Source: a virus
Taxonomy: Duplodnaviria > Heunggongvirae > Uroviricota > Caudoviricetes
Reading direction: 5' to 3' (one strand)
IMG/VR virus record: IMGVR_UViG_2565956709_000005
Location: 1 to 13,323 of that record
Length of the DNA stretch: 13,323 nucleotides
A model generated the notes under the pieces. That model was not told the origin of the DNA. It searched no databases and was given only the letters and a program-made list of their open reading frames with translations. The position numbers and the translations under genes are program-made. Each line of letters opens with the position of its first letter. Position 1 is the stretch's first letter. Below are positions 1-13,323 of the stretch, piece by piece.

Positions 1-1131
1 TCAAATGACCAGTTTTTTCCATTCCTTACCGCGTGCGTCGTTGTAAATATCGGTCATTTTTTGATTCGAATGGCCTAGCAAAATTTTGGTATCAACCCCC
101 TGCTCTCTGAACAATCGCTCTGATAAAGATCTCTGCTCATGGAAAGAGGGTGGGGTGCCATTAGCACGCCAGTTGTAATCCACAGAATCCCGGGCTTTTT
201 TAAATGCAACGGTTAATGTTGCTGGCTTAACCATCCCGCCGCGCTTAGCTGTCCCTTTCGCGTGATGGTGGTGCAATAGCCACGGACTAAGAACGCAATC
301 GCGGCAGGATGACACTACATCATCCAGGGTGAGATTTAATTTATCGCAACGCAGAGCCAGAGGGATGGCAATCCGGGTTCCTGTTTTTTGCTGTTCGACA
401 TGAAGATAACCATCCCGGATATCCGAAAATTGCATTTTGCAAATATCTGAAAGGCGCTGGCCTGTCATCAGTGCCAGCAGCATACCGCGCTGTAAAAAGT
501 AACCATCCTTTTCCGCTGCGTTATAAATCATCATCCACTCATCAAAAGTCAGTCGCTGTCTTGATATCCGCACCTGCGGTTTTTTTGCCGATTCTGCAGG
601 GTTAAAGCCTGGCGGGACATCGCCCGTTTGCTGAGCTTCCCGGAAAACATCGATCAGTACTTTCCTGAAAATTTGTCCCATTCTGTTATGTCCTCTGGCC
701 TTGTACTCTTCCAGTACTGATACCACATCTTTTACGGTTATGGCATCTAACGGTCTGGTGCCAAAACGTTCATCAAATACCCTGAGAGGGGCCGCTTTCT
801 GTTTCAGCGTGTTGAGTTTGATCTCGCCGTTTTCATATCTTTCCTGTTGAATTTTTCTGTAATTATTCAGAAAAATGGTAACGGTTGATGAACCGCCGGT
901 ATCACTAATAATTTTCTCCTGCAGACTGAGCATTTGTTCCATTTGCTGCCGGGCAAGACGGCTGTTCGCTTCTGCTGCAATAGTTTCTGCCAGTTTCTGG
1001 TCAATACTGCCGAGACCGTGATTTTTGCCTGTTATGGGATGCCTGTAACGCCAGTAAACTTTGTTATTTCTTTTGTCAAAATACGGAGATAATCCCGGAA
1101 CATCGGTTTTATATTTTCGCGGGCGCGCCAT
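1..1131 (-). CDS. int: Phage tyrosine integrase (lambda Int-like site-specific recombinase), 376 aa, complete; stop codon at positions 1-3
   Basis: Full-length ORF in track. C-terminus ...LLGHSNQKMTDIYNDARGKEWKKLVI resembles the lambda Int catalytic tail (LLGH...Y motif) as I recall it. Overlaps an excisionase-like gene by 23 nt. Family assignment from established knowledge, not a search. Confidence 0.88.
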   Translation of the reverse strand: MARPRKYKTDVPGLSPYFDKRNNKVYWRYRHPITGKNHGLGSIDQKLAETIAAEANSRLARQQMEQMLSLQEKIISDTGGSSTVTIFLNNYRKIQQERYENGEIKLNTLKQKAAPLRVFDERFGTRPLDAITVKDVVSVLEEYKARGHNRMGQIFRKVLIDVFREAQQTGDVPPGFNPAESAKKPQVRISRQRLTFDEWMMIYNAAEKDGYFLQRGMLLALMTGQRLSDICKMQFSDIRDGYLHVEQQKTGTRIAIPLALRCDKLNLTLDDVVSSCRDCVLSPWLLHHHHAKGTAKRGGMVKPATLTVAFKKARDSVDYNWRANGTPPSFHEQRSLSERLFREQGVDTKILLGHSNQKMTDIYNDARGKEWKKLVI

Positions 1132-1357
1132 CTTCCAGTATCCTCTTCAAAGCAGGGTGATCTGTGGCGATCACCTCCGGCTTGTTTACCATTCCGACAA
1201 AGCGAGCTTGCGGATCCACTCGCCAGCGTCTCCCAACTTTTTTGGGGAGAGGAAATATCATTCCGGCTTTAGCGTATTTACTTAACGTACTCGGAGTAGG
1301 GACCGGTTCACTGAATTCCTCTTTTGCCCACTCAGTGAGCAGAATAAGTCTTGCCAT
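1109..1357 (-). CDS. xis: Excisionase / small DNA-binding directionality factor (Xis-like), 82 aa
   Basis: Small basic ORF immediately upstream of and overlapping int on the same strand; motif ...IFPLPKKVGRRWRV... resembles the winged-helix Xis region. Synteny plus motif; not search-verified. Confidence 0.7.
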   Translation of the reverse strand: MARLILLTEWAKEEFSEPVPTPSTLSKYAKAGMIFPLPKKVGRRWRVDPQARFVGMVNKPEVIATDHPALKRILEDGAPAKI

Positions 1358-1421
1358 GAGCGTCGTTCGCTAATCATGGTCGCCGCCACTATAGCTGGTG
1401 GGCAACGACCGGGGTTGAACA

Positions 1422-3893
1422 TTAAAAATCAGCCTGATTCGGGATCAGTTTTTGCCAGATAACTGAAACGTATTTTGCCTGGTAACGGGCGTCATCAAGT
1501 GCATTATGGCGCTCACCTTCGAATGGAATAGCCGTTCTGGCATCGAAGTCTATGGCTTTCCCCAGCTCAACGATTGTGCGTACATCGCGATCGTTGTAGT
1601 AACGCCATGGGCAGGGGATCCCCTGCCGTTCGTATGAACGGCGCAAAATCGTGTTGTCGAAGTTGGCTCCATTTCCCCAGACCTGAACAAAAAATTCGCC
1701 GGAGTTTTCGTCGATAAATTCCCGCAATTGCAGCAGTGCATCATCTAACGGGATTTCATCGGTCAGAATGGCAGATTGCGCCTCCCGTGATTGCTTAAGC
1801 CACCATTTAATGGTGCCACGATCAATGACTCCGCCAGCAGTATCCATATCGATGGTCTTACTAAATTCCGGCCCCATATCTCCGGTTTGCGGATCGAAAA
1901 ATATTGCACCTATTGAGATAAGCGGGGCATCGGGATTTTTTCCCATGGTTTCAAGGTTGATCATCATGTGGTGCCACATTCTGCTGGTGGATGTGATAAC
2001 GTGATGACCGTTCATCGCAATTAAGGGATCTGCCGTCTCGCCAGTTTCACTATCGCTGGCGTGATCCTGAGCGCTACCAGCATTCTCCTTGTGTGGATGT
2101 TCAGCGCCTTCCATTTCCTTCGGATCATTTTCCTGAACTTCAACCTGATTCTCTTCATCGAATGTTTCCTGGTATGTTGCGTCGCCCATTACCGCGCCAC
2201 AATCAGGGCAGTTGCCACCACCGCTTTGACCGCAGGCGGTGCAGACTTTTTCCGGTTCCTGTTGCGCTACTGGCTCAGGTTGTTTCGTTTCTGGCTCGTT
2301 TTGTAACGCATTTGGGCTGTTTTGTTCCGCTTTCTGGCCGTTCTGTTCCGTTTCTTGTTGGTTCTGATTCACTGAATCGCGGGTTTCAATCCCCTTCACC
2401 CATTTCGGATCATTCGGGTCGCTAATCCCTGCAACAAATTCACCACGTGATACAGCAAGCAACTTATTGGCGTCAGGCTGGCTGATATTGGCTGCCTGCA
2501 TAATTTTGTTTACTTCGTCAGCGGTAACTTTTACCGGCTCTGGTTGTGCGATCGTGTCAGATGCACCAGTATTTTGTTGTGAACCTGAGTATGTACTGTT
2601 TTTGCGGGCGAAATATTCTTCTTTCGTGATTTCAGTAGCCCCGGCAGCCAGCGCCTTATCCAGACCAGAAAGTTTGTTTGCGCGACCGTATTTTTCGCCA
2701 TCCTTGTCGGTGAAGAGGAAGTAGAACGGCCCTTCACGCTCTACAGATGGTTCGACTTCCACTTTGCATTCGGTTTTTTCGTTGTCCGGAATTGCCGTTT
2801 CCACTGCATCAGTTTCTGGTACTGGCGACGAGAGAGTATCAGTTGCGCTCTGATTTCTTCCTTCATCTTCAAACACGCCCTTTGTAGTCAGGTATTCAGT
2901 AATGTATTTGTTCAGTGCCACAGGGTCTTTGTGAATGTCGATCGGACGTTCACGGACAAGGCCAAAAATAGTCTGGCGGTCGTAGCGAAGGGCATCAGGC
3001 TGTTTGCGCATTGATGCCGAGATACGCTTCCAGTCTTCGCGGTCGTTGTCGATAACTTCATTTTTTGCCCAGCGATGGATGCTGCCGTCAATGTTTCCGG
3101 CATCCACATCACCAGGCCAGAGAGCGTAGGCCAGTTCGTCATCCAGTGTTTTCCATGTCTGCTTGTATTCGCGATGAATGGCAGCAATGACCGGGCTGAT
3201 TTTTCCTGTTGAATTTTCAGTGTGCTGTTGATTGGTTCTGGCGCGGGCGAGATCAACAACAGACGTGTATTTTCCGGTTTCCTTGCGTTCACCTTCGCGA
3301 CGTTTTTTCCAGATGCGCATCTCTGCCTGAATTTCGGGCCATTTGGCACCAGGCTTACATTTATGCTTAACCCACCCGATGGCATGCAGCTTAAGCTCCG
3401 GATACATGGCGTTAACTTCTGGCATTTTCATCAACGCTTCAACGATATGTCCGTCGAATGTTGCCATGTCTTCCTGCAACAATTCCTGTGCGCTAATAAC
3501 CATATCAACGGTGATGTTTTCACATGTGTCGAACTTAACCATGACAGCGTTCTGTACTTCAGGGGACAGCTTGTCAAAATTGACGTTCATCGGATCGGAT
3601 TCTGGTTCGACCGGAATAAAGGAAGCGGATTCCTCATCCCAGCGGTTTTCCTGCATATATTCAGCATCCCAGGAATCGAGGGCAGGGCGGGGTATACCGG
3701 GTTTATCCTCGCAGACAAGAAATTTATAAGCGCAGTCCTGAGCAGCCGGATAATGTTCCAGGAATTGCCAGTGAAATTTTGCGCGGGCGCGACGTTCATC
3801 ACCGGCTTCAATGGCAGTGGCTACAGCGACGGCACCTTCTTCCTTTATTGCCTGTTCGTCCGGAATGGCGGCGCAAATAAAGACTTTACTCAT
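1422..3893 (-). CDS. Large multidomain exonuclease, RecE / exodeoxyribonuclease VIII-like by position, 823 aa, with C-terminal DnaQ-like (DEDDh-type) 3'-5' exonuclease domain
   Basis: Long ORF with ATG at 3893 and a GAGG about 12 nt upstream. C-terminal ~180 aa carries DnaQ-family-like motifs (...VWGNGANFDNTIL... and ...HNALDDARYQ...). Middle has a Q/E/P-rich low-complexity linker and a CxxC-x9-CxxC zinc-ribbon-like motif (CTACGQSGGGNCPDCG). Segment LLAVSRGEFVAGISDPNDPKWVKG matches my unverified recollection of E. coli RecE. Sits where lambdoid phages carry exo/recE, directly upstream of xis-int. Confidence 0.6.
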   Translation of the reverse strand: MSKVFICAAIPDEQAIKEEGAVAVATAIEAGDERRARAKFHWQFLEHYPAAQDCAYKFLVCEDKPGIPRPALDSWDAEYMQENRWDEESASFIPVEPESDPMNVNFDKLSPEVQNAVMVKFDTCENITVDMVISAQELLQEDMATFDGHIVEALMKMPEVNAMYPELKLHAIGWVKHKCKPGAKWPEIQAEMRIWKKRREGERKETGKYTSVVDLARARTNQQHTENSTGKISPVIAAIHREYKQTWKTLDDELAYALWPGDVDAGNIDGSIHRWAKNEVIDNDREDWKRISASMRKQPDALRYDRQTIFGLVRERPIDIHKDPVALNKYITEYLTTKGVFEDEGRNQSATDTLSSPVPETDAVETAIPDNEKTECKVEVEPSVEREGPFYFLFTDKDGEKYGRANKLSGLDKALAAGATEITKEEYFARKNSTYSGSQQNTGASDTIAQPEPVKVTADEVNKIMQAANISQPDANKLLAVSRGEFVAGISDPNDPKWVKGIETRDSVNQNQQETEQNGQKAEQNSPNALQNEPETKQPEPVAQQEPEKVCTACGQSGGGNCPDCGAVMGDATYQETFDEENQVEVQENDPKEMEGAEHPHKENAGSAQDHASDSETGETADPLIAMNGHHVITSTSRMWHHMMINLETMGKNPDAPLISIGAIFFDPQTGDMGPEFSKTIDMDTAGGVIDRGTIKWWLKQSREAQSAILTDEIPLDDALLQLREFIDENSGEFFVQVWGNGANFDNTILRRSYERQGIPCPWRYYNDRDVRTIVELGKAIDFDARTAIPFEGERHNALDDARYQAKYVSVIWQKLIPNQADF

Positions 3894-3988
3894 TTTGTTT
3901 TAACCTCATTACAGATTTCAGGGTGAACGAATCCCTGCCATTGCTGGCATTTTTAATCCGTTGGTATGGCGTTAATATGGCTGGCGGG

Positions 3989-4177
3989 TTATCCAGCCGG
4001 TATTTCGTTATTCAGGTTCAGCGATACTTTTTTTAACGGGAGGCATTCACCGGGGATTTTTTGTTCGTCCCTTACCTGAATGCAGGATGACTTACTGTCA
4101 TAAATTCCGGTAATCACATTTTGTGGCTCACCCGTTATAAGAAAAACGGTCATCACCAGTGCAAATGCTGAAGTCAC
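3989..4177 (-). CDS. Small protein with N-terminal hydrophobic segment (predicted single transmembrane helix or signal anchor), 62 aa, unknown function
   Basis: ORF in track. N-terminus MTSAFALVMTVFLITG is hydrophobic. Start overlaps the stop of the upstream ORF in an ATGA arrangement (4174-4177). Lies in a visibly AT-rich segment. Confidence 0.5.
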   Translation of the reverse strand: MTSAFALVMTVFLITGEPQNVITGIYDSKSSCIQVRDEQKIPGECLPLKKVSLNLNNEIPAG

Positions 4178-4362
4178 TGCTGTTCTCCGATAATACCAAG
4201 TTCAAGAAGGGCAATTCTGGAAAGTATGGAATTATCATTGAGAAGATAAGGTTCATATTTTCTCATCTTAATGGCATCTTCCGTAAACTCCCGGTTACTG
4301 AGCAGAACACCAATATCAAAACAACCTTCAGACGTATTAACGTTTGGTAATAACGTTTCCAT
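4174..4362 (-). CDS. Small hypothetical protein, 62 aa from ATG 4362 (ORF track gives a 97-aa version from 4467)
   Basis: The internal ATG at 4362 is preceded by GAGGA with a 7-nt spacer; I saw no comparable ribosome-binding site at 4467. Translationally coupled to the downstream 62-aa membrane protein ORF. Confidence 0.45.
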   Translation of the reverse strand: METLLPNVNTSEGCFDIGVLLSNREFTEDAIKMRKYEPYLLNDNSILSRIALLELGIIGEQQ

Positions 4363-4927
4363 TATCGCGTCCTCAACAATGAATTTTGTGATGCGGTGCC
4401 TGGTGCCTCCAGGTGACGTTAACCAGTTAACAATTAACGCCGGATACAGAGAATCCACCCATAACACTGTTTTTGGTTTTAACTGTTCCGCGTGCGCTCA
4501 GCCGCATTCACCACATCACAAAATTCACTTTAAAAAGGGCGGCAGAGCAGTCACGGAGTAAAACTGATACCGCCAAACGTCACCAGAAAATTGATAACAG
4601 AGGGCGTTGCAGCGGAGTTGTCACTTAAGCGTATGGTCAACCTGACAACCCGGTGTCCTCAACGGAGGAAGGAATAACCCCGCCATACTTACCGCCGCGC
4701 CATTTCGCGGAGTGCCACAACCGGAAGCGCACGGTCGAACTAAATTTAACGACACCGTACAGAGAGACCAATTTCGCCGTGCGCTTTCGCTTTATGCCCT
4801 GACTTTTCAGGGACATATCCTTTCAGTAAACTGTCAGTGCCGGATGTTCACCCGTGTCCGGCGCACGCACTCCACCTGACCCGTGGAGAACTCCTTAATT
4901 ACCAACCTTAGCTTCGTTGGTTAGCTA

Positions 4928-5146
4928 TTAACGCGGGTATGTAACCATTCTGGCAATGCTTAATGCCGCTGCTTTTTCCAGCCTGGTGATATCCTGCTCC
5001 AGAGCGGACAGATTTTCAGCCTGCTTAGTCCTGGCTTCATTGGCCCATTTCAGATCCTGCGCTGCATTAATTTTCTGGCGCATCCACTCATAAAGTTCAT
5101 CATCGGTATAGTCTGGCGCGATGATGACGGGTTCTCGTTTCTGCAT
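4928..5146 (-). CDS. Small early-left protein, 72 aa, predicted helical; unknown function (positional analogue of kil/cIII-type small early genes)
   Basis: ORF in track; same strand and operon as neighbours. No recognisable motif. Confidence 0.5.
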   Translation of the reverse strand: MQKREPVIIAPDYTDDELYEWMRQKINAAQDLKWANEARTKQAENLSALEQDITRLEKAAALSIARMVTYPR

Positions 5147-5175
5147 ACTGATTCCTCGCGGTGCTGCTTCGCTTA

Positions 5176-5304
5176 TCAGCCGTTAGATTTTGCCGAGCTG
5201 GAAAGCGCCTGTTTAAACTCACTGAAGCTGAGAGCTTCTTCGCCTTCGGCAAGGCCTTCGAAGTATTCTTCGTAAGCCTTTTCCATGATTGTGTCGAAAT
5301 CCAT
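5176..5304 (-). CDS. Small acidic protein, 42 aa from ATG 5304 (56 aa if ATG 5346 is used); absent from the ORF track (below 60 aa)
   Basis: Hand-translated on the minus strand: MDFDTIMEKAYEEYFEGLAEGEEALSFSEFKQALSSSAKSNG. The ATG sits 2 nt after the stop of the upstream 78-aa ORF, with GGTGAG just upstream. Confidence 0.35.
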   Translation of the reverse strand: MDFDTIMEKAYEEYFEGLAEGEEALSFSEFKQALSSSAKSNG

Positions 5305-5305
5305 A

Positions 5306-5542
5306 TCACTCACCTGAGTTTCTTTCCAGCCAGCGACGGGCACCATTTTCGGTTTTAAACGTTTTGCTTTTGGTATACGTCATTGCGGTGAACGTGCCGT
5401 CCTGGTTGGGGAACACGCCACATACCAGAGATTCGCTGTTGCCAAGATCGATAGTATCCATGCTGACCTCATTTCCCCTTAACGCCGGGGGAGCGGAACA
5501 AAAACCTGCTGCATAGTTATTAAAGTTGAACCCTGCCGTCAT
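5306..5542 (-). CDS. First gene of the leftward early operon, 78 aa, unknown function
   Basis: ORF in track. GAGG lies 8 nt upstream of the ATG on the minus strand. About 95 nt downstream of the predicted P_L -10 element. Confidence 0.55.
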   Translation of the reverse strand: MTAGFNFNNYAAGFCSAPPALRGNEVSMDTIDLGNSESLVCGVFPNQDGTFTAMTYTKSKTFKTENGARRWLERNSGE

Positions 5543-5642
5543 GTTCTTACGCCTCGGGCTGGCTACTTAACCCCTGACCACTGCCTGGTAACTCGAGGTA
5601 TTGCCCTGTATTGTGTGGGACGGGATGGGTTGGTATGGGAAA

Positions 5643-5686
5643 ACTATAGGAAATGCCTAATTACTTGTCAATAGGCTATGCCTAAT
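5643..5686 (-). promoter_or_regulatory. Predicted leftward early promoter P_L with two operator sites (O_L)
   Basis: On the minus strand: -35 TTGACA (5671..5666), 17-bp spacer, -10 TATAGT (5648..5643). Two 17-bp dyad sites of the form ATTAGGC-N3-GCCTAAT at 5670-5686 and 5645-5661, centres 25 bp apart. Shares a 23-bp exact inverted repeat with the O_R region. Confidence 0.5.
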
Positions 5687-5779
5687 AATTTGGGCGCGAC
5701 CTAATAGGTGATGGTTTGTGGGAGAGGTAGTAGGAGTTAACTAACGGGAACTAGGAATTTCCCGTCGGACCATATAAGT

Positions 5780-6256
5780 TTAAGTTCCTGTCTTGGTGAT
5801 GTTCTGGCTTTTCCGTTTTGATTCTTGATTTTTCAGATAGTTAGCTACCTTCATTTCCATTGCGGCAATGTAGGCGCGAACGTCATGATCAACCCAACTA
5901 GGCTCCGTAGCATTTCCAGATAAGAGGAAAGCCACAATTGCTCTTTTTTCATCAGAGGCGGCTTGATAAAGGCTGTTTATGTCTAAAAGTTCACTTTTTG
6001 TATCTGAAGTGGATGGGGTTGGTATGGGGTATTCGTTAAGCCCCCAATGCTCTGGACCAACCACATCAGAAAAGAAACGCCATAGTTCTGGAAGTTTGTC
6101 TTTACTTATCGAACCTTTCTTAATCCAGTCATGGATTGATGGTGGTTGGACTTTGAAATGACGTGCGATTTCCGCCTTTGATTTGACGGCTCCTGATGCA
6201 ATTTTTTTGTTAATGGCCTGCTCAATCGCTCGGCCTAAGTCTTTACCACTAAGCAT
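5780..6256 (-). CDS. racR: Prophage repressor with HTH DNA-binding domain, RacR-like, 158 aa
   Basis: ORF in track, divergent from a cro/ydaS-like gene. HTH-like segment SKAEIARHFKVQPPSIHDWIKKG. Resemblance to E. coli Rac RacR (also 158 aa) is from memory, not a search. Confidence 0.75.
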   Translation of the reverse strand: MLSGKDLGRAIEQAINKKIASGAVKSKAEIARHFKVQPPSIHDWIKKGSISKDKLPELWRFFSDVVGPEHWGLNEYPIPTPSTSDTKSELLDINSLYQAASDEKRAIVAFLLSGNATEPSWVDHDVRAYIAAMEMKVANYLKNQESKRKSQNITKTGT

Positions 6257-6283
6257 TGCTTAATAGTCTCCTATGCGCATCGC

Positions 6284-6353
6284 GTTAGGCAATCCCTACT
6301 CTCGATGTATTAGGCATAGCCTATTGACAATTGCATTAGGCTAAGCCTAATAT
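6284..6353 (+). promoter_or_regulatory. Predicted rightward early promoter P_R with operator sites (O_R) between the repressor and cro-like genes
   Basis: -35 TTGACA (6324-6329), 18-bp spacer, -10 TAATAT (6348-6353). Perfect 17-bp palindrome ATTAGGCTAAGCCTAAT at 6335-6351, near-palindrome ATTAGGCATAGCCTATT at 6309-6325, and a degenerate third site at 6284-6300. Site centres are 25-26 bp apart. Confidence 0.55.
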
Positions 6354-6380
6354 TGTTGCGTGTTTTTTGGAGTTCATTCG

Positions 6381-6704
6381 ATGAAAAAAGATAACTATTC
6401 ATTCAAACGAGCTTGTGCTGTTGTCGGTGGGCAATCAGCAATGGCTAGGCTTTTAGGTGTATCTCCTCCAAGCGTAAATCAATGGATCAAAGGTGTACGT
6501 CAGTTGCCTGCTGAGAGATGTCCTGCGATTGAACGAGCAACAAAAGGTGGTGTCCTGTGTGAAGAACTTCGTCCTGATGTTGATTGGACATACTTACGAC
6601 GCTCGTCATGTTATTCGCAGAATATGTCGATGAAGCAACCAAATGACGAAAACGATCATACCCGAAGCATCAAGAGGCAAATGATTCATGAAAATCAAAC
6701 ATGA
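6381..6704 (+). CDS. ydaS: Cro-like HTH regulator, YdaS-like, 107 aa from ATG 6381
   Basis: GGAG lies 9 nt upstream of ATG 6381 (track starts at GTG 6360). HTH segment GGQSAMARLLGVSPPSVNQWIKG. Start matches my recollection of Rac YdaS (MKK.NYSFK.ACAVVGGQSAMARLLGV...), unverified. Confidence 0.7.
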   Translation: MKKDNYSFKRACAVVGGQSAMARLLGVSPPSVNQWIKGVRQLPAERCPAIERATKGGVLCEELRPDVDWTYLRRSSCYSQNMSMKQPNDENDHTRSIKRQMIHENQT

Positions 6705-7113
6705 GCACATCCGCATGGCGATGAATGCTTGGGCATACCCTGATGGTGAGAAAGTTCCTGCAGCTGAAATAGCCCGGACTTATTTCGAACTGGGGATGAC
6801 GTTCCCTGAACTGTACGACGACAGCCATCCGGAAGCCCTGGCCCGTAATACACAGAAAATTTTCCGTTGGCTGGATAAAGACACCCCTGATGCTGTTGAA
6901 AAAATTCAGGCTCTGTTACCGGCGATCGAAAAGGCAATGCCGCCTCTGCTGGTGGCCCGTATGCGCAGTCACAGCTCTGAGTATTACCGGGAGATTGTCG
7001 AACGGCGGGATCGGCTGGTGAAGGATGTCGACGATTTTGTTGCGTCAGCGGTTGTTTTGTATGACCAGATGAATCGCGGCGGCCCGGCAGGGAATGCTGT
7101 GGTGATGCACTAA
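6688..7113 (+). CDS. ydaT: YdaT-like protein (toxic partner of YdaS in Rac, kept silent by RacR), 141 aa
   Basis: ORF in track; overlaps ydaS-like stop by 17 nt; begins MKIKHEHI as I recall for YdaT. Mostly synteny-based. Confidence 0.6.
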   Translation: MKIKHEHIRMAMNAWAYPDGEKVPAAEIARTYFELGMTFPELYDDSHPEALARNTQKIFRWLDKDTPDAVEKIQALLPAIEKAMPPLLVARMRSHSSEYYREIVERRDRLVKDVDDFVASAVVLYDQMNRGGPAGNAVVMH

Positions 7114-7135
7114 AAGCACGGTGTTCGGGGGTTTT

Positions 7136-8098
7136 ATGAGCAGCAAGCTTCATGGTCTTGTCTGGGAAGGGTGCGCCTTCACCGGCATGATCTTATCCAG
7201 GGTGGCGGTTATGGCCCGTCTTGCAGACTACAGCAATGACGAGGGCGTGTCATGGCCTGCCATTGAAACTATCCGGCGTCAGATCGGTGCAAGAAGTGAA
7301 TCCACAGTGAAATCGGCTATTGCAGAACTGGCGAAAGAGGGCTGGCTGACGAAGGAAGAGCGTAAGGTCGGTGGGCGTAATGTAAGCAATATCTATCGAC
7401 TTAATGTGGAAAAACTCGAAGCAGCTGCGGCGGCGGCGCGTGAGTCATATAAACCGAAAAGAAAAATTAGCCCGGCAAAAAATGACCCGTTAACAGTTGA
7501 CCCGTCAAATATTGACCCCTCAACGGTTGACCCGTCAAATTTTGATGGATCAACTGTTGATAAAAAACTGCCGATTAGGGGGGCGATGATTGACCCCGAT
7601 CCGTCAGTATTAAAACCTGATCCGTCAGATAAAAGATCTTCTTGTCCGGACGCTTCGCAACCGGACCCGCAGACGGCTGAACAGGATTTTTTAACCCGAC
7701 ACCCTGACGCGGTTGTGTTCAGTGCGAAAAAACGCCAGTGGGGAAGTCAGGAAGATTTGGTGTGCGCACAGTGGATCTGGGGACGAATCGTGAGTCTTTA
7801 CGAGCAGGCGGCCAGCTATGATGGCGAGATCACTAGACCGAAAGAACCCAACTGGACAGCATGGGCCAATGACGTTCGCACAATGCGGATGCTGGATGGC
7901 AGAACTCACAGACAAATTTGTGAAATGTTTGGGCGTCTCCAGCGGGATTCGTTCTGGGTAAAAAACATCATGAGTCCGGCAAAACTCCGGGAAAAATGGG
8001 ATGAACTGGTTATCCGCCTGGGGCGTTCGCCTGCGCAGCGTTGCGTGAATCACATTTCTGAACCGGACACTGAAATTCCGCCGGGCTTCAGGGGGTAA
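7136..8098 (+). CDS. Phage replication initiation protein (N-terminal winged-helix HTH, O-like), 320 aa from ATG 7136, with ori iterons inside the coding sequence
   Basis: N-terminal HTH-like region (...WPAIETIRRQIGARSESTVKSAIAELAKEGWL...). Central DP(S/L)N/TVD peptide repeats are encoded by the DNA iterons. Position after the cro/cII-like genes matches lambda O. ATG 7136 is preceded by a G-rich stretch; the track's GTG 7121 is the alternative start. Confidence 0.7.
   Translation: MSSKLHGLVWEGCAFTGMILSRVAVMARLADYSNDEGVSWPAIETIRRQIGARSESTVKSAIAELAKEGWLTKEERKVGGRNVSNIYRLNVEKLEAAAAAARESYKPKRKISPAKNDPLTVDPSNIDPSTVDPSNFDGSTVDKKLPIRGAMIDPDPSVLKPDPSDKRSSCPDASQPDPQTAEQDFLTRHPDAVVFSAKKRQWGSQEDLVCAQWIWGRIVSLYEQAASYDGEITRPKEPNWTAWANDVRTMRMLDGRTHRQICEMFGRLQRDSFWVKNIMSPAKLREKWDELVIRLGRSPAQRCVNHISEPDTEIPPGFRG
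7482..7553. repeat. Candidate replication origin: five 12-bp dyad iterons (TTGACCCGTCAA-like) at 15-bp phasing
   Basis: Copies at 7482 (ATGACCCGTTAA), 7497 (TTGACCCGTCAA), 7512 (TTGACCCCTCAA), 7527 (TTGACCCGTCAA) and 7542 (TTGATGGATCAA), each TTGAC-NN-GTCAA-like. Followed by an A/T-rich stretch (7555-7570) and more TGACCCC / CCGTCAG repeats to about 7628. Confidence 0.6.
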
Positions 8099-8138
8099 GT
8101 GTTAATTTCTGGTCATGAGGTAATTTTCAGGAGGGCTT

Positions 8139-8561
8139 GTGGCAAAAGTTTTTACACAAGAAGAGCGGGAAAAAATTAAAGGGCAGGTTGTTGAACTCGT
8201 ACGCCAGAGTGGGCGCGAGACGTTACGACAACTGGAAACTAAAACTGGGGCAACAAGATATCTGATGAGCGTTCTGGCCAGAGAGCTGGTTGCCAGCGGC
8301 GATGTATACAACTCCGGCTACGGGTTATTCCCCTCTGAACAGGCGCGTAAGGACTGGCAAAACGCCCGCAAAAAACTCTCGAGGGCAAAGGTGAAGAAAC
8401 CTGCTGTGGTTGATCCGGACCTTATCTGGTCATCACCTGACGGAGAAATACGTCGCTACGACAGTCGCCTAAACATAATCTGTCGCGAGTGCCGGAAGAG
8501 TGAAGCTATGCAGCGTGTACTGGCTTTCTATCAGGGTAATTTTCAGGAGGCGGTACTGTGA
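8139..8561 (+). CDS. Hypothetical protein, 140 aa, GTG start
   Basis: AGGAGG lies 4 nt upstream of GTG 8139. The 16-nt ribosome-binding-site module GGTAATTTTCAGGAGG occurs just upstream and again at the gene's 3' end. Confidence 0.55.
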   Translation: MAKVFTQEEREKIKGQVVELVRQSGRETLRQLETKTGATRYLMSVLARELVASGDVYNSGYGLFPSEQARKDWQNARKKLSRAKVKKPAVVDPDLIWSSPDGEIRRYDSRLNIICRECRKSEAMQRVLAFYQGNFQEAVL

Positions 8562-8618
8562 GTGAAATTAGCTATCAGGCTTCAATTACCGCTGGCATTC
8601 GCATCAAAGGAGAGGAGC

Positions 8619-8975
8619 ATGGAAATAAAACCAGAGGATGAGTTAAGCAATATCGTTTTATTTCCGGTAAAAGAGGATGACCCTCGTAATCAGGTTAATT
8701 TTCTTTATGAGCCATCGGAAAGACCATATTGTCATCACGCCTCTGTCCGGGTTGACGAAAAAGAGCGTCAGGTCCGCTGTAAAATCTGCGGTGCAGTTGT
8801 GGAGCCATTTGACTGGATGCTCTCTGTGGCGAAAAGAGAAACCAGACTGGCAGATGATGTAAGGCTCTTGCGTCAAGAGGAGCGGGAAAGGCGAAAAAAT
8901 ATAGAAAAGCTAATTCAGATTGAGCGTAACGCGAAAGCGCGGATACGCAGGGCGACAAAATCCAGAACTGAATAA
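8619..8975 (+). CDS. Hypothetical zinc-ribbon-like protein, 118 aa from ATG 8619 (track version starts at GTG 8562)
   Basis: Strong ribosome-binding site AAGGAGAGGAG directly upstream of ATG 8619. Cys/His cluster YCHHASV...CKICG. Basic coiled-coil-like C-terminus. Confidence 0.55.
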   Translation: MEIKPEDELSNIVLFPVKEDDPRNQVNFLYEPSERPYCHHASVRVDEKERQVRCKICGAVVEPFDWMLSVAKRETRLADDVRLLRQEERERRKNIEKLIQIERNAKARIRRATKSRTE

Positions 8976-9068
8976 TTAAATTTAGCTCTGTTAAAAATTT
9001 AATCCTTAACCGGAGGGATTTCTGCACCCTCAGAACATCAGGAGGCCGCCCGAAAGGGCGGTAGTTAA

Positions 9069-9251
9069 ATGCGAAAGTTTAAAATAATTATTGAAACGGG
9101 AATAGCCGGTGGAGATTTCGAGGATGAATTCGAAGTGGATGATGATGCGACGCCTGATGAAATACATGACGAAGCAAAAGATATTTTCTTTAACTACTGC
9201 AATTACTCATATCACGAAATAAAAGACGAAGAGGAAGAACAAAATGGCTGA
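9069..9251 (+). CDS. Very acidic small protein, 60 aa (20 Asp/Glu against 5 Lys/Arg), unknown function
   Basis: ORF in track. AGGAGG (9040-9045), then a GC hairpin (9046-9061), then ATG 9069. Composition counted by hand. Confidence 0.5.
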   Translation: MRKFKIIIETGIAGGDFEDEFEVDDDATPDEIHDEAKDIFFNYCNYSYHEIKDEEEEQNG

Positions 9252-9420
9252 TTTTGGTTCAACTAAATACAACGTCAGTTTTGAAGAATGGCATGAACTG
9301 TTAATGGACTATGCAGAGTTACGTGGTGGCAGTGCTGCTGATGCTGAAGCATGGCGTGATGATTATGAAGCAGGAAAAACTCCGGTCGAAGCATATTGTG
9401 ATGAGTGGGGCGATGAATGA
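9244..9420 (+). CDS. Acidic small protein, 58 aa (16 Asp/Glu against 4 Lys/Arg); absent from the ORF track
   Basis: Hand-translated: MADFGSTKYNVSFEEWHELLMDYAELRGGSAADAEAWRDDYEAGKTPVEAYCDEWGDE. Start overlaps the upstream stop (ATGGCTGA) and its stop overlaps the next ATG (ATGA). Confidence 0.45.
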   Translation: MADFGSTKYNVSFEEWHELLMDYAELRGGSAADAEAWRDDYEAGKTPVEAYCDEWGDE

Positions 9421-9733
9421 GCGAGGTTAATTATCAGGAAGGGCATGAAACGGCGGGGCAAGCAAAAACAGTGGCATGGCGATATCGCTACGTGAAAAAA
9501 AAGGCGTTACGGACTTTCAGGGGAAGTAGTGGTCTGGTGACTGGAAATATGTACCGAAAAAAGAGGATTGTAACGACAGGCCGAACTATGAAATTCAGGC
9601 CTTATTCACTGCCCCGCCAGTCCCGGTTACATCAGAAGAACTGGTTAAAGCTGTGCACTTTTATGAACAACTAAAACGCGAAAATCCACCAGCATCCGGA
9701 AACCTGATTACAGATTCCCAGATAAGGCAATGA
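9417..9733 (+). pseudogene. Disrupted or recoded gene: translationally coupled start at 9417, A8 run with A_AAA_AAG heptamer, protein-like coding in the -1 frame downstream, in-frame TAG at 9527-9529
   Basis: Frame 0 from 9417 is open to 9674 but its C-terminal half is compositionally odd (K/R-rich). The -1 frame from 9530 to 9733 reads protein-like (WSGDWKYVPKKEDCNDRPNYEIQALFTAPPVPVTSEELVKAVHFYEQLKRENPP...) but has no start codon and follows a TAG. Slippery heptamer at 9497-9503. Confidence 0.3.
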
Positions 9734-9903
9734 GCTACCTGGCGCAGAACGGGCTGATAAGTATGGGGAATGTTTTACGATGAATATTTAGACTAAAGAG
9801 TTTGTAACGCTATGTAAGTGATTTTTTCTGGTTTAGATATTTATATATCCGGCCAAATTGAGGTGTGTTTAAATGTAATTGCACATTGATTGTAGGAGGA
9901 ATA

Positions 9904-10083
9904 ATGAAAAACGCATTGCAGTTTTTGTTTGTTGCGTTCTGGTTGTTCGTATCATGTATGCCCATCATCTTCACAGCAAGGTATATGGAAAAAGTTGATG
10001 TTTTGATATTAATATTTGGATATATAAATGCCCTTTTTTTAGGGGTGTTCATGGCGGTCATGTGCATTGAATACTGGCGGTAA
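9904..10083 (+). CDS. Small hydrophobic protein, 59 aa, two predicted transmembrane helices; accessory (moron-like) gene in an AT-rich island
   Basis: AGGAGG (9894-9899) with a 4-nt spacer to ATG 9904 (track lists a longer version from 9865). Sequence MKNALQFLFVAFWLFVSCMPIIFTARYMEKVDVLILIFGYINALFLGVFMAVMCIEYWR. Surrounding 9780-10080 is visibly AT-rich. Confidence 0.55.
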   Translation: MKNALQFLFVAFWLFVSCMPIIFTARYMEKVDVLILIFGYINALFLGVFMAVMCIEYWR

Positions 10084-10138
10084 ATACAGCGAACGCCATT
10101 GGTTTAGTTGGATATTTACTGTGCCGGACAAAAACGGT

Positions 10139-10166
10139 TTGCGGGGAAATCTTAGTTAAGTAGAAT
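10139..10166 (+). promoter_or_regulatory. Predicted promoter of the hok/mok mRNA
   Basis: -35 TTGCGG (10139-10144), 16-bp spacer, -10 TAGAAT (10161-10166). The predicted start near 10173 coincides with a 5' element (10171-10184) complementary to the mRNA 3' region (10547-10561). Confidence 0.45.
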
Positions 10167-10221
10167 GACTGCGGGTGCTTGAGGCTATCTGTCTCAGGCA
10201 TGAACACCAAAAGGCAGATAG

Positions 10222-10295
10222 AGAAAAGCCCCAGTTAACATTACGCGTCCTGCAAGACGCTTAACATTAATCTGAGGCCATATCTATGCTCTACA
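10222..10295 (-). ncRNA. sok: Predicted Sok-like antisense RNA covering the mok ribosome-binding site and start codon
   Basis: Inferred from hok-locus architecture. Minus-strand terminator-like structure (hairpin GCGUC...GACGC nested in a GGCCUCAG/CUGGGGCU stem, then UUUUCUCU) ends near 10222. Weak candidate promoter on the minus strand (-35 TTGCCT 10329..10324, -10 TAACCT 10306..10301). Boundaries approximate. Confidence 0.35.
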
Positions 10296-10498
10296 CACGT
10301 AGGTTAGCCTCTTACGTGCCGAAAGGCAAGGAGAAGCAGGCTATGAAGCAGCAAAAGGCGATGCTAATCGCCCTGATCGTCATCTGTTTAACCGTCATAG
10401 TGACGGCACTGGTAACGAGGAAAGACCTCTGCGAGGTACGAATCCGAACCGGCCAGACGGAGGTCGCTGTCTTCACAGCTTACGAACCTGAGGAGTAA
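10286..10498 (+). CDS. mok: Mok-like reading frame (in-frame N-terminal extension of Hok), 70 aa
   Basis: ORF in track. Starts 19 codons upstream of hok in the same frame, an arrangement I recall for MokC/HokC. GAGG lies 8 nt upstream of ATG 10286. Confidence 0.6.
   Translation: MLYTRRLASYVPKGKEKQAMKQQKAMLIALIVICLTVIVTALVTRKDLCEVRIRTGQTEVAVFTAYEPEE
10343..10498 (+). CDS. hok: Hok/Gef-family type I toxin (small membrane-depolarising peptide), 51 aa, HokD/RelF-like
   Basis: Sequence MKQQKAMLIALIVICLTVIVTALVTRKDLCEVRIRTGQTEVAVFTAYEPEE has the Hok/Gef signature (N-terminal transmembrane helix, ...LVTRKDLCEV.IRTG..EVA.F.AYE...). AAGGAG lies 10 nt upstream. Confidence 0.88.
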   Translation: MKQQKAMLIALIVICLTVIVTALVTRKDLCEVRIRTGQTEVAVFTAYEPEE

Positions 10499-10565
10499 GA
10501 GACCAGGCGGGGGAGAATCCCTCGCCACCTCTGATGTGTCAGGCATCCTCAACGCACCCGCACTT

Positions 10566-10592
10566 AACCCGCTTCGGCGGGTTTTGTTTTTT
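10566..10592 (+). terminator. Rho-independent terminator of the hok mRNA
   Basis: AACCCGC-TTCG-GCGGGTT stem-loop followed by TTTTGTTTTTT. Confidence 0.8.
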
Positions 10593-10664
10593 CCTGGCAT
10601 TCTGGTTTACAATTCGCACGTCAGCCTGAACACCTGACACCTGCTGCGCCAGCAGAGAAAACAG

Positions 10665-10937
10665 ATGGCGCACAAAACCAAATTTCACAATTCTGATACC
10701 GACCTTGCCATCCGGCATGAGCGGCGTTCACACGCATTTAAAACCGACTGGTACCAACACCCACCATGTACTGAAGAACAGGCCGAATGGCTGATTCATA
10801 ACTACCGCAGACGTGGATATGAGTTTAGGAAAGCCCTCACCCTCGATTATCGTCACTGGATAATCTACGTCAGACTCCCTTATTCCGAACGCCCACCGCG
10901 TCCGTCCCGCACATTCCAGCAACGGATCTGGAGGTAA
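10665..10937 (+). CDS. Hypothetical protein, 90 aa, translationally coupled to the downstream HNH-motif protein
   Basis: ORF in track. Its 3' end contains the GGAGG that serves the next gene's GTG start. The antisense ORF here is S/T/R/P-rich and less plausible. Confidence 0.5.
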   Translation: MAHKTKFHNSDTDLAIRHERRSHAFKTDWYQHPPCTEEQAEWLIHNYRRRGYEFRKALTLDYRHWIIYVRLPYSERPPRPSRTFQQRIWR

Positions 10938-10938
10938 C

Positions 10939-11997
10939 GTGCGGGTATTACTTCGATCTGTTCCGGTACCGGAACTTGGGCTGGTGGTCCTTAAGCCTGG
11001 TCGTGAATCCATGCAGGTATTCCGCAGCGGTCGTGTACTGGTGGAGCCGGAACCGAAAAGCATGCGCGGTCTGCCGTCCGGAGTCGTTCCTGCCGTTCGC
11101 CAGCCATTGGCGGAGGATAAATCACTACTGCCATTTTTCAGCGATGAGCGGGTGATTCGTGCTGCTGGCGGTGCTGGTGCGCTGTCTGACTGGCTGTTAC
11201 GCCACGTTAAATCCTGCCAGTGGCCTCATGGTGACTATCATCACAGTGAAATCGTCATACATCGTTACGGTACCGGCGCGATGGTGTTGTGCTGGCACTG
11301 CGACAACCAGCTGCGTGACCAGACCTCCGAATCACTCGGGCAACTTGCTCATCAAAACCTGTCAGCATGGATGATTGACGTCATACGCCATGCAGTGAAT
11401 GGCACGCAGGAGCGGGAATTATCGCTGGCTGAATTGTGCTGCTGGGCTTCTGTAAATGATGTAGTGGATGCCATGACCGAAAATATGGCGCGTCGAATCC
11501 TGAAGCTTCCGGGTGAAAAAATCCGCTCAGTATACCGCGAGAGCGACATCGTACCGGGAGAGCAGACCGCCATCAGCATACTGAAGCAGCGCACAAAAAA
11601 TATTGCGCCGTTGCCTCACGCCCACCAGCAACAGAATCCACCACAGGAAAAGACGGTGGTCAGCATTGCCGTTGATCCGGAGTCACCGGCTCAGTATCTC
11701 CAGCGCCAGAAACCACAACGGGAAGAGATGCCTGTATACACGCGCTGGGTAAAAACGCAGAAATGCATGACGTGTGGCAATCAGGCAGATGATCCGCATC
11801 ACATCATTGGTCATGGACTGGGAGGGATGGGAACAAAGGCTGATGATTTGTTTGTTATTCCGCTGTGCCGTAAATGCCATAGCGAACTACACGCCGGGGT
11901 AAAAGATTTTGAAGAAAAACACGGCAGCCAGCTGTTGTTGCTGATTCGTTTTTTAATGCACGCGAGAAATTCGGGTGTCCTGAAGTGGAAAGCATGA
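10939..11997 (+). CDS. Nin-region protein with C-terminal HNH-type zinc-finger nuclease motif (DUF968-like), 352 aa
   Basis: C-terminus CMTCGNQADDPHHIIGHGLGGMG...LCRKCHSELH has a CxxC...HH...CxxCH...H layout. GGAGG lies 6 nt upstream of GTG 10939. Sits directly upstream of rusA. DUF968 label is from memory. Confidence 0.65.
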   Translation: MRVLLRSVPVPELGLVVLKPGRESMQVFRSGRVLVEPEPKSMRGLPSGVVPAVRQPLAEDKSLLPFFSDERVIRAAGGAGALSDWLLRHVKSCQWPHGDYHHSEIVIHRYGTGAMVLCWHCDNQLRDQTSESLGQLAHQNLSAWMIDVIRHAVNGTQERELSLAELCCWASVNDVVDAMTENMARRILKLPGEKIRSVYRESDIVPGEQTAISILKQRTKNIAPLPHAHQQQNPPQEKTVVSIAVDPESPAQYLQRQKPQREEMPVYTRWVKTQKCMTCGNQADDPHHIIGHGLGGMGTKADDLFVIPLCRKCHSELHAGVKDFEEKHGSQLLLLIRFLMHARNSGVLKWKA

Positions 11998-12363
11998 ATG
12001 ACTGAACGCATAGAATTTGTTTTGCCTTACCCGCCAACGGTGAACACTTACTGGCGACGTCGTGGCAGCACATATTTTGTATCAAAAGCCGGTGAGCGTT
12101 ATCGCCGTGATGTGGCGCTTATTGTTCGCCAGCAGCGGCTGAAATTAAACCTGTCCGGAAGGCTGGCGATAAAGATTATTGCAGAGCCACCGGATAAACG
12201 TCGTCGTGACCTGGACAATATCCTGAAAGCACCACTGGATGCGCTGACGCATGCCGGACTTCTCATAGACGACGAGCAGTTTGATGAAATCAATATTGTG
12301 CGCGGTCAGCGCGTTCCTGGGGGGCGGCTGGGCGTGAAGATTTACAAAATTGAGAGTGAGTGA
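11998..12363 (+). CDS. rusA: RusA Holliday-junction resolvase, 121 aa
   Basis: Motifs ...LPYPPTVNTYWRR... and ...PDKRRRDLDNILKAPLDAL... match the RusA family as I know it. Start overlaps the upstream stop (TGAATG). Confidence 0.88.
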   Translation: MTERIEFVLPYPPTVNTYWRRRGSTYFVSKAGERYRRDVALIVRQQRLKLNLSGRLAIKIIAEPPDKRRRDLDNILKAPLDALTHAGLLIDDEQFDEINIVRGQRVPGGRLGVKIYKIESE

Positions 12364-12917
12364 TCGTAAATATGATATATCCGGAAATTACAGGCAAAAG
12401 CGGCGAGCATTTACGTCTAAAAACGCTGGAAGCCGTCTGGATCCAGGGGAAATTACGGATGTGGGGGCGTTGGTCGTACATAGGTGGTGGCAAACCAGGA
12501 AATATGTTCAATCAGTTGCTGGCATCCAAAACACTTACAAAAACTGCGATCAATGAAGCTCTGCGCAGAATAAAAAAATCAGGGATTGATAAAACTGAGC
12601 TGGAAGCGTTTTTGCGTGAGATGATCAACAGCAAGCAAAAGAGCGGGCTGGCTTATTGTACTGATGCCGAGGCGTTATGTATCGATCGGGTAATTAGTAA
12701 AGTGTTGGCAGAGCATCCGGGATTGATTTGTATCCTCCGACAAAGATATGAAGGGCTGGGAATGAGCAAGCTGAAAATGGCAGAACAGTTAAAAAAGAAT
12801 CACCCTGACTGGAGCCTGAAAACTTGTAGAAATCGCATTGATGTTTGGTTGGCGATGGCTGAAACCATGCTTTTCCTTCCAATGTGCGTGGCACTTCGGT
12901 GCTTTTCTGATAACTGA
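12360..12917 (+). CDS. Putative late-gene antiterminator (Q-like) by position, 185 aa; start may be ATG 12372 rather than GTG 12360
   Basis: ORF in track. Follows rusA as Q does in lambdoid phages and is followed by a promoter-like sequence. No Q-specific motif recognised, so the function is positional inference. Confidence 0.4.
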   Translation: MIVNMIYPEITGKSGEHLRLKTLEAVWIQGKLRMWGRWSYIGGGKPGNMFNQLLASKTLTKTAINEALRRIKKSGIDKTELEAFLREMINSKQKSGLAYCTDAEALCIDRVISKVLAEHPGLICILRQRYEGLGMSKLKMAEQLKKNHPDWSLKTCRNRIDVWLAMAETMLFLPMCVALRCFSDN

Positions 12918-12992
12918 TGATAGAAGTGCATCAGCTATCAATCTTGTTGACGTTCATCAAGGTCTGGACAATACTTACGTTAAGTTCCAACA

Positions 12993-13323
12993 GGTAATGG
13001 TGCCAACTTACTGATTTAGTGTATGATGGTGTTTTTGAGGTGCTCCCGTGGCTTCCATCTCCATCAGTTGTCCCTCCTGCTCAGCTACTGAAGGCGTGGT
13101 GCGTAACGGTAAAAGTACTGCCGGACATCAGCGCTATCTCTGCTCTCACTGCCGTAAAACATGGCAACTGCAGTTCACTTACACCGCTTCTCAACCCGGT
13201 ACACACCAGAAAATCATTGATATGGCCATGAATGGTGTTGGATGCCGGGCAACCGCCCGCATTATGGGCGTTGGCCTCAACACGATTTTACGTCACTTAA
13301 AAAACTCAGGCCGCAGTCGGTAA
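12993..13323 (+). mobile_element. IS1 insertion sequence, left end and insA, truncated by the window edge
   Basis: Terminal sequence GGTAATGGTGCCAACTTACTGAT at 12993 resembles the IS1 inverted repeat as recalled, followed by a complete insA ORF and the IS1 A6C frameshift motif (13299-13305). Confidence 0.88.
13048..13323 (+). CDS. insA: IS1 InsA (transposition regulator; N-terminal part of the InsAB' frameshift transposase), 91 aa
   Basis: Sequence [43 protein letters not shown]... is recognisable as IS1 InsA. Slippery A AAA AAC lies near the 3' end. Confidence 0.9.

Follow-up and report, generated by a model that had tools for sequence, protein, structure and literature searches.

A predicted operator-promoter module beyond racR in the immunity region of an Escherichia coli Rac-type lambdoid prophage

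Genomic context of the racR locus

The window analysed was a stretch of 13,323 nucleotides of a Caudoviricetes virus record (IMG/VR record IMGVR_UViG_2565956709_000005, positions 1 to 13,323) and the features identified around its repressor gene are given in Table 1. On E. coli chromosomes that were 99.9% identical over a 1.4-kb stretch, the repressor gene carried the RefSeq name 'DNA-binding transcriptional repressor RacR' and its product was 92% identical to K-12 RacR over 158 aa. To the right of racR, the cro-like ydaS was followed by the cII-like ydaT and by a gene for a 325-aa product matching an O-like replication initiator (phrog_391), the order of cII-like regulator and replication genes after a cro-like gene being that of lambdoid phages. 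The ydaS start codon was placed by eye and by analogy to the K-12 start, while the mechanical ORF starts at GTG 6360. A YdaT-box with an exact ATGATT-N6-AATCAA match was found at 6681-6698 over the ydaT start codon, and the same box was published for K-12 (PMC11879457).

To the left of racR, the DUF1391 gene, DicF RNA and dicB were followed by ydfD, a large exonuclease and a lambda-type integrase; for the DicF and dicB part, the same gene order was annotated in phage Tritos. The neighbouring Cro-like YdaS and CII-like YdaT identify the racR locus as a lambdoid immunity region and, judged from its gene content, the window is the early region of a Rac-type lambdoid prophage with a Qin dicBF-type leftward operon. 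Approximately 1,085 of 5,426 complete E. coli genomes carried at least 80% of the 1.4-kb stretch; Rac-type immunity regions are common in E. coli.

Table 1. Features of the immunity region and its neighbouring genes in the 13.3-kb window (operators and promoters are sequence predictions unless described otherwise in the text).
Feature	Position	Strand	Description
dicB	about 4174-4362	-	Pfam DicB 2e-37 on ORF residues 36-97
DicF RNA	4537-4588	-	Rfam DicF, 76.7 bits
Predicted first gene of P_L operon	5306..5542	-	DUF1391, ydfA/ydaF-like; Pfam 3e-27, phrog_751
Predicted P_L	5643..5671	-	TTGACA (5671->5666), 17 nt, TATAGT (5648->5643); 11/12 consensus matches
O_L1 (predicted)	5645..5661	-	Dyad ATTAGGCATTTCCTATA, 3 mismatches; covers spacer and -10 of P_L
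Left arm of 23-nt inverted repeat	5665..5687		O_L2 dyad and P_L -35
O_L2 (predicted)	5670..5686	-	Dyad ATTAGGCATAGCCTATT, 1 mismatch; 3' half-site runs into -35 TTGACA
Candidate O_L3	5689..5705	-	ATTAGGTCGCGCCCAAA, 3 mismatches; weak, possibly just half-site
racR	5780..6256	-	158 aa repressor gene
O_R4	6248..6264	+	Dyad ACTAAGCATTGCTTAAT; racR start codon in spacer; published as 'operator 3'
O_R3	6284..6300	+	Dyad GTTAGGCAATCCCTACT, 3 mismatches
Right arm of 23-nt inverted repeat	6308..6330		O_R2 dyad and P_R -35
O_R2	6309..6325	+	Dyad ATTAGGCATAGCCTATT, 1 mismatch; runs into P_R -35
P_R (PydaS/ydaST promoter)	6324..6353	+	TTGACA (6324-6329), 18 nt, TAATAT (6348-6353); 10/12 matches
O_R1	6335..6351	+	Perfect dyad ATTAGGCTAAGCCTAAT, 0 mismatches; covers spacer and -10 of P_R (PydaS)
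ydaS (cro-like)	6381..6704	+	Pfam YdaS_toxin 4e-30, P22_Cro 1e-8; phrog_35 transcriptional repressor
ydaT (cII-like)	6688..7113	+	Pfam YdaT_toxin; phrog_163 CII-like activator

RacR protein

K-12 depends on RacR for viability, since toxic genes of the prophage are released when it is lost. The RacR of the window gave no significant match in Pfam or PHROG, its profile search against PDB sequences was empty and no S24 peptidase match was found even at E<=1, while relatives with a RacR-type N-terminal domain did carry S24 (for example P0102 at 2e-21). The AlphaFold2 model showed a five-helix N-terminal domain joined through a disordered linker to a helical C-terminal domain, and the top Foldseek matches were all XRE/CI/Cro/HipB domains, none of them at E<0.1. 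Published modelling described the RacR N-terminal domain as CI-like and the C-terminal fold as unrelated to CI (PMC11014345). Overall, RacR would work like lambda CI while standing outside the CI protein family, its modelled N-terminal fold being weakly XRE/CI-like by Foldseek. In the comparative set described below, one DNA-binding domain and one operator grammar were reused with at least three different C-terminal domains.

Inverted repeat and operator dyads

The two arms of the exact inverted repeat TTGTCAATAGGCTATGCCTAATA were 100% complementary over 23 nt with 620 nt between them. The original prediction had claimed that the left arm recurs as its exact reverse complement on the far side of a RacR-like repressor gene, and both the recurrence and the identity of the gene were confirmed. 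The repeat was also the longest exact inverted repeat of the 13.3-kb window, the maximum in 200 dinucleotide-preserving shuffles being 11-16 nt. A scan for ATTAGGC-N3-GCCTAAT, which the original prediction had called for, was run with up to 3 mismatches and gave 8 matches against 0.47 expected, a number reached by none of the 200 shuffles. Seven of the 8 matches flank racR, starting at 5645, 5670 and 5689 on the left and at 6248, 6284, 6309 and 6335 on the right. In addition, a consensus scan of positions 5300-6700 found just two sigma-70-like sites, both directed outward from racR, in agreement with the predicted TTGACA on each side of the repressor gene. The claim that the operators overlap the predicted P_L and P_R elements also held, since the dyads run into the -35 and -10 hexamers. 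The predicted grouping into pairs or triplets about 25 bp apart was correct for the spacing of 25-26 bp but not for the numbers, as the right side had four dyads and the left side two good dyads with one weak dyad at 19 bp. Finally, the proposed operator consensus was supported by the enrichment of the ATTAGGC dyad and by its match to the RacR footprint logo, but this consensus had already been published for K-12.

Right-hand operators and rightward promoter

The right side of the window showed a layout identical to that of K-12 Rac, with four dyads (36, 25 and 26 bp apart) of which the fourth covers the racR ATG. In K-12, RacR formed three complexes with the 123-bp racR-ydaS intergenic DNA in shift assays, and this DNA was seen to contain GCCTAA/TTAGGC repeats (PMC5700373). 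DNase I footprints with purified RacR gave an ATTAGGC logo and (T/A)TAGGC-n3-GCCTA(T/A) dyads, of which one covers the ydaS promoter and another carries the racR ATG within its n3 spacer; the equivalent of O_R1 was footprinted at the lowest RacR concentration (PMC9638921). The same study identified K-12 PydaS as TTGACA/TAATAT by primer extension and -10 mutagenesis, and described a leaderless racR promoter with a leaderless PracR3 transcript (PMC9638921). The four right dyads, the half-site, the ydaS promoter, the ATG dyad and the YdaT-box of the window are thus the same as in K-12 Rac (Krishnamurthi 2017, PMC5700373; Wisniewska 2022, PMC9638921; 2023, PMC11014345), and the RacR orthologue, the ATTAGGC half-site dyads and the dyad over the racR ATG place the locus with K-12 Rac. 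The right-hand sites, the operator consensus and the ydaS promoter are already known from K-12, and the right-hand half of the region adds nothing beyond the literature.

The locus agreed with lambdoid immunity regions in having divergent repressor and cro-like genes with four dyads between them or over the racR start, operators overlapping the -35 and -10 of the rightward early promoter and, at the sequence level, a second operator set with an outward promoter beyond the repressor gene. The distance between O_L2 and O_R2 was 639 bp and the dyad centres were 25-26 bp apart.

Predicted left-hand operators and leftward promoter

The left module lies 94 bp past the racR stop codon and its two dyads form a good pair 25 bp apart. 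The start site of the predicted P_L is expected near 5636, for which the calculated K-12 equivalent is about 1,419,619 on the minus strand. In O_L1 one half-site is perfect, whereas the other is degenerate and also serves as the -10; this single good half-site in E. coli-type alleles (3 mismatches) is a counterpoint to the interpretation preferred below. ATTAGGC and CCTATAGT of O_L1 were invariant among 35 distinct E. coli-type alleles, and in O_L2 the half-sites were near-invariant while the N3 spacer was variable among alleles. A third left operator at 5689-5705 was considered and kept only as a candidate half-site, being allele-variable and 19 bp from O_L2 rather than 25; among the divergent lineages with flanks that were read, none had an equivalent site there. 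No intrinsic terminator was detected between racR and P_L, where the hairpin at 5744-5765 was without a T-run, and RNAalifold gave no pairs for the 20 conserved nt that follow the racR stop.

The homology of the window to Tritos, Evi and other phages with a different CI/Cro ended at 5624-5637, and at 5630-5637 for phages such as Tritos that combine a dicBF-type left operon with another CI/Cro pair. Since this mosaic junction falls at the predicted P_L start, the left dyads belong to the exchangeable immunity module and travel with the repressor gene.

Published work on K-12 Rac covers the racR-ydaS intergenic region only. No description of the left pair or of P_L beyond racR was found in the searchable literature, by which subscription journals, including the older Rac/sbcA genetics, are mostly uncovered. 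The left-hand promoter-operator set is therefore presented as a well-supported prediction that is apparently unreported.

Conservation across alleles and lineages

For the comparative set, 174 loci with a gene for a RacR relative were taken from genomes, viral contigs and metagenomes. Among approximately 90 distinct E. coli-type regions, the right sites were always at -95, -69, -44 and -8 from the racR ATG and the left pair always at +94..97 and +119..122 from the racR stop codon, an invariance that is weaker evidence than the count suggests as many of the E. coli-type loci are closely related. In distinct alleles, the half-sites and promoter hexamers were near-invariant while the N3 spacers and the linkers between dyads varied. 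K-12 carries the left module as well, with 22 of the 23 repeat positions common to its two sides.

In 62 distinct E. coli-type region pairs, the longest run shared by the left and right sides was between 11 and 24 nt and had a core of 21 nt (ATTAGGCATAGCCTATTGACA). Concerted evolution of the two arms was considered and rejected on the same 62 pairs because of this range and because spacer and flank bases differed independently. For these reasons also, the exact 23-nt identity is an allele state and not a functional unit. The repeat consists of the promoter-distal dyad and the -35 of each module, with the few unconstrained positions also matching in the present allele.

A two-dyad promoter module beyond the repressor gene was found in seven lineages with RacR identities of 58-100%, at 90 bp to 1.4 kb from the stop codon. 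In lineages at 58-67% RacR identity with unrelated flanks, the module was kept in the same orientation with a 17-nt promoter spacer, and the 17-nt P_L spacer was kept in six further lineages overall. The module lay approximately 90-130 bp past the repressor stop in Mixta, Proteus and an uncultured Pseudomonadota metagenome-assembled genome, approximately 1.4 kb past it in Klebsiella, beyond an inserted 384-aa gene, and approximately 760 bp past it for an S24-fused repressor (RacR N-terminal domain with an S24 peptidase domain). O_L2 was conserved in all five of these, and a dyad equivalent to O_L1 was found in divergent lineages too. For a 364-aa repressor relative, of which only the dyads were read, the dyad pair was found in the same order at +484 from the stop. 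What these sequences show directly is that the left module exists, how it is arranged and that it is conserved.

On the right side, divergent lineages had three operators versus four in the E. coli-type regions. The extra E. coli-type unit matched O_L2 with its -35, the neighbouring dyad had lost its -35, and the position of O_R3 corresponded to the -35-bearing dyad of the three-operator lineages. This suggests, from few lineages, that the fourth O_R operator is a 26-bp copy of O_L2 and its -35 that was inserted into an ancestral three-operator O_R.

Proposed mechanism

The region probably acts as the immunity switch of a Rac-type lambdoid prophage of E. coli, with RacR dyad modules on both sides of the repressor gene and a predicted P_L on the left. 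RacR dimers would recognise 17-bp dyads of ATTAGGC-N3-GCCTAAT, and both early promoters, the predicted P_L included, are built from one module of approximately 48 bp, of which racR has a copy on each side, the two inverted relative to each other. In the promoter-distal dyad, the 3' half-site GCCTAT continues into the -35 TTGACA (GCCTATTGACA). In the promoter-proximal dyad, approximately 6 nt further on, the 3' half-site CCTAAT or CCTATA continues into the -10 TAATAT or TATAGT, giving GCCTAATAT on the right and TCCTATAGT on the left. RacR bound to both dyads would then cover the -35 and the -10 and exclude RNA polymerase. The overlap with the hexamers explains two repeated deviations from the dyad consensus: the -35-linked half-site reads GCCTATT rather than GCCTAAT, and the O_L1 half-site is degenerate in E. 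coli-type alleles because it must also serve as the -10.

The right module P_R (PydaS) would drive ydaS, ydaT and the replication genes, while the two further right dyads, towards and over the racR start codon, would autoregulate the leaderless racR promoter. The left module P_L would drive the operon from ydfA, dicF, dicB, ydfD and the exonuclease through to the integrase. We infer that RacR binds at O_L and that P_L is active.

Expression data from K-12 agree with a leftward promoter of this kind. When RacR was lowered, ydaG, ydaF, kilR, ydaE and racC rose 40-70-fold while racR mRNA fell (PMC6765115), and CRISPRi of racR with targets inside the gene also induced the leftward genes (bioRxiv 10.64898/2026.09.06.749655). 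Since the leftward genes rise while racR transcription falls or is silenced, a RacR-repressed promoter would be expected downstream of racR in K-12, and read-through from the racR promoter was rejected as the main leftward route for the same reason. The RacR regulon, including the racR-proximal ydaFG operon, was stated as not characterised (PMC11014345), and the operator paper made no mention of ydaG, kilR or looping (PMC9638921).

K-12 RacR formed octamers in solution by gel filtration, which the authors assigned to the 'four inverted repeats' on the right, and a left operator was not invoked in their model (PMC11014345). Given the octamer, cooperative binding and a loop between O_L and O_R are plausible. 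A lambda-like loop, in which tetramers on O_L1-O_L2 and on O_R1-O_R2 would join as an octamer over approximately 640 bp and the left module would directly silence the leftward genes (kilR and recET in K-12; dicF and dicB here), is a tentative proposal that has somewhat less than an even chance of being right. It differs from the published picture of four RacR dimers lined up on the four right-hand repeats.

Comparison with known systems

The likeness to lambda CI/Cro included the divergent P_RM/P_R, a leaderless repressor transcript, an octamer-forming repressor, a cII-like gene after cro, 17-bp dyads approximately 24-26 bp apart over the -35 and -10 and, as predicted here, a second operator set with an outward P_L. 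The region differed from lambda in having four operators on the right and two on the left, against three on each side in lambda, and in its O_L-O_R distance of approximately 640 bp, whereas the lambda spacing is longer at approximately 2.4 kb. RacR also lacks an S24/LexA-type autocleavage domain and its C-terminal fold was reported as unrelated (PMC11014345), and YdaS was reported not to repress racR (PMC9638921).

The PaaR2/YdaS/YdaT system of CP-933P (Jurenas 2021, PMC8630535) shares the YdaS and YdaT partners and an octameric repressor. Its PL933P was described with -35 and -10 identical to those of P_R and with O_L beyond the repressor operon, but it differs from the present region in the repressor (PaaR2), in the GTTTAGTAA-type operator repeats and in a toxin-antitoxin pair co-transcribed with the repressor (PMC8630535).

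The Qin DicA/DicC region with dicBp-ydfABC-dicF-dicB has the same leftward content, namely a DUF1391 gene, DicF, dicB and ydfD, and its leftward operon has a promoter just beyond the repressor gene that is shut off by the immunity repressor (PMC10448788). The window showed this Qin-type gene order below its predicted leftward promoter, and DicA, like RacR, is a short repressor without a RecA-dependent cleavage site. However, the repressor is DicA in Qin versus a RacR type here, the operators differ, and the operon/immunity junction lies at the P_L start. The repressor adjacent to the dicBF operon of the window was RacR with RacR dyads, which speaks against control by DicA. In K-12 Rac, the leftward operon is of the ydaG-ydaF-kilR type versus the dicBF type of the window.

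Alternative explanations

The left dyads could instead be auxiliary operators that bind RacR and loop with O_R, making repression or autoregulation at O_R tighter without a promoter firing at them, the leftward genes being transcribed by read-through from the racR promoter. The octameric state of RacR in solution (PMC11014345), the attribution of kilR expression to PRM-racR read-through past a Rho-dependent terminator inside racR (PMC4150792) and the lack of a detectable intrinsic terminator between racR and the left dyads are compatible with this, but looping alone needs neither the hexamers nor the 17-nt spacing that are conserved with the dyads in seven lineages. Read-through is also less plausible in Klebsiella, where the module lies 1.4 kb off and past an inserted gene, and it does not account for leftward genes that go up as racR transcription goes down or is blocked by CRISPRi targets within racR. 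This explanation was considered unlikely.

A recombination scar, in which the inverted repeat would represent the ends of an exchangeable immunity cassette or a by-product of gene conversion between the two sides and its left copy would have no regulatory role, was given even less credence. The boundary of non-homology to other lambdoid phages does lie within approximately 10 nt of the left module, and the E. coli-type O_R2 looks as if O_L2 had been copied into an O_R that ancestrally had three operators. In a scar, however, decay would be even along the sequence, whereas the allele substitutions avoided the half-sites and hexamers and fell in the spacers and linkers, and the left module was kept at variable distances in lineages with unrelated flanks. 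A cassette that ends at P_L is usual for lambdoid immunity regions and is compatible with a functional O_L. It is likewise usual in lambdoid phages for the repressor and Cro to share operators, and such sharing leaves RacR in place, which weakens the idea that the Cro-like YdaS or the CII-like YdaT is the main protein at the dyads and that the left copy serves one of these proteins instead of RacR. YdaS was reported to compete with RacR for the operators and YdaT to footprint over PydaS (PMC11014345, PMC11879457), but the half-site matches the RacR footprint logo exactly (PMC9638921) and the YdaT site, ATGATT-N6-AATCAA, is different (PMC11879457); binding chiefly by either protein was thus judged as improbable as the scar.

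Implications for RacR control

With RacR dyad modules on both sides of racR as the preferred interpretation, the left module would be a concrete place at which RacR could act directly on the leftward operon, with its cell-division inhibitors kilR or dicB/DicF, recET and int/xis. In addition, it may offer an alternative reading of the RacR octamer.

Leftward operon and the immunity module junction

The genes leftward of the predicted leftward promoter P_L were a DUF1391/ydfA-like gene, the DicF RNA, dicB and a ydfD-like gene (see table), and on this content the operon is identified as the Qin dicBF type. K-12 Rac carries ydaG-ydaF-kilR where the window has this operon, which indicates from gene content that the RacR-type immunity module in the window is joined to a different cell-division-inhibitor cassette from that of K-12 Rac. 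The junction between the module and the dicBF-type cassette was found at the predicted P_L start.

Features identified in the window and in the Klebsiella prophages
Feature	Position	Strand	Remark
ydfD-like DUF1482 gene	3989-4177	-	leftward operon
dicB	4174-4362	-	Pfam, 2e-37
DicF RNA	4537-4588	-	Rfam, 76.7 bits
DUF1391/ydfA-like gene	5306-5542	-	leftward operon
7-bp hairpin ACGGGAA...TTCCCGT	5744-5750 / 5759-5765		just 3' of racR
Conserved stretch of ~20 nt (ACTTATATGGTCCGACGG...)	5759-5779	-	directly 3' of racR stop codon
YdaT-box ATGATTCATGAAAATCAA	6681-6698		exact match
sok antitoxin RNA family RF01794	10173-10348	+	full-length match, 117 bits
384-aa gene, HSDR_N (restriction endonuclease-like) domain	6637-7791 (L176/L177)		Klebsiella RacR-type prophages

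Sequence downstream of racR

The stretch after the racR stop codon was conserved across lineages (loci L007, L008, L009, L131-L133, L150 and L176) with protein identity of only 55-65% and unrelated downstream DNA. RNAalifold found no consensus structure in it, and its opposite strand, GACCATATAAGT, resembles a -10 element. The hairpin just 3' of racR, which in K-12 is 6 bp with one pair absent from both arms, was not called by the terminator scan because it has no T-run. It may represent a weak t_imm-like 3' end of the racR transcript.

Right-hand operators and YdaT-box

Divergent RacR lineages (L006-L009, L131-L153) had three right-hand operators, at -68, -43 and -8, compared to four in E. 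coli-type loci (window 6248-6351). The additional 26-bp unit of the E. coli type was identical or nearly identical to the left operator O_L2 with its -35. The dyad next to this unit no longer has the -35 that it once carried, CCTATTGACC having become CCTACTCTCG in the window and CCTACCCTTA in K-12. Further right, the spacer of the YdaT-box holds the ydaT start codon (6688); the same site was published for K-12 YdaT (PMC11879457).

Other genes

The sok match implies that the window's late part carries a putative hok/sok-type type I toxin-antitoxin locus. The Klebsiella HSDR_N gene was placed between the repressor gene and the predicted O_L/P_L, the position of rexAB in lambda, an analogy that suggests a possible role as a moron or in defence.

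RacR DNA-binding domain in other proteins

The N-terminal DNA-binding domain of RacR (70-86% identical) recurred fused to an S24 peptidase domain (226-235 aa) and also, in proteins of 342-371 aa from Achromobacter and metagenome contigs, to C-terminal regions that are unrelated (proteins P0101, P0102 and P0114; loci L010, L012, L155-L170 and L178). ATTAGGC dyads were found upstream of the gene in every scanned locus of these fusion types, P0101 and P0114 lying outside the scan. Together, the fusions and their upstream dyads indicate, at the level of sequence, that one DNA-binding specificity is reused with several different C-terminal domains.
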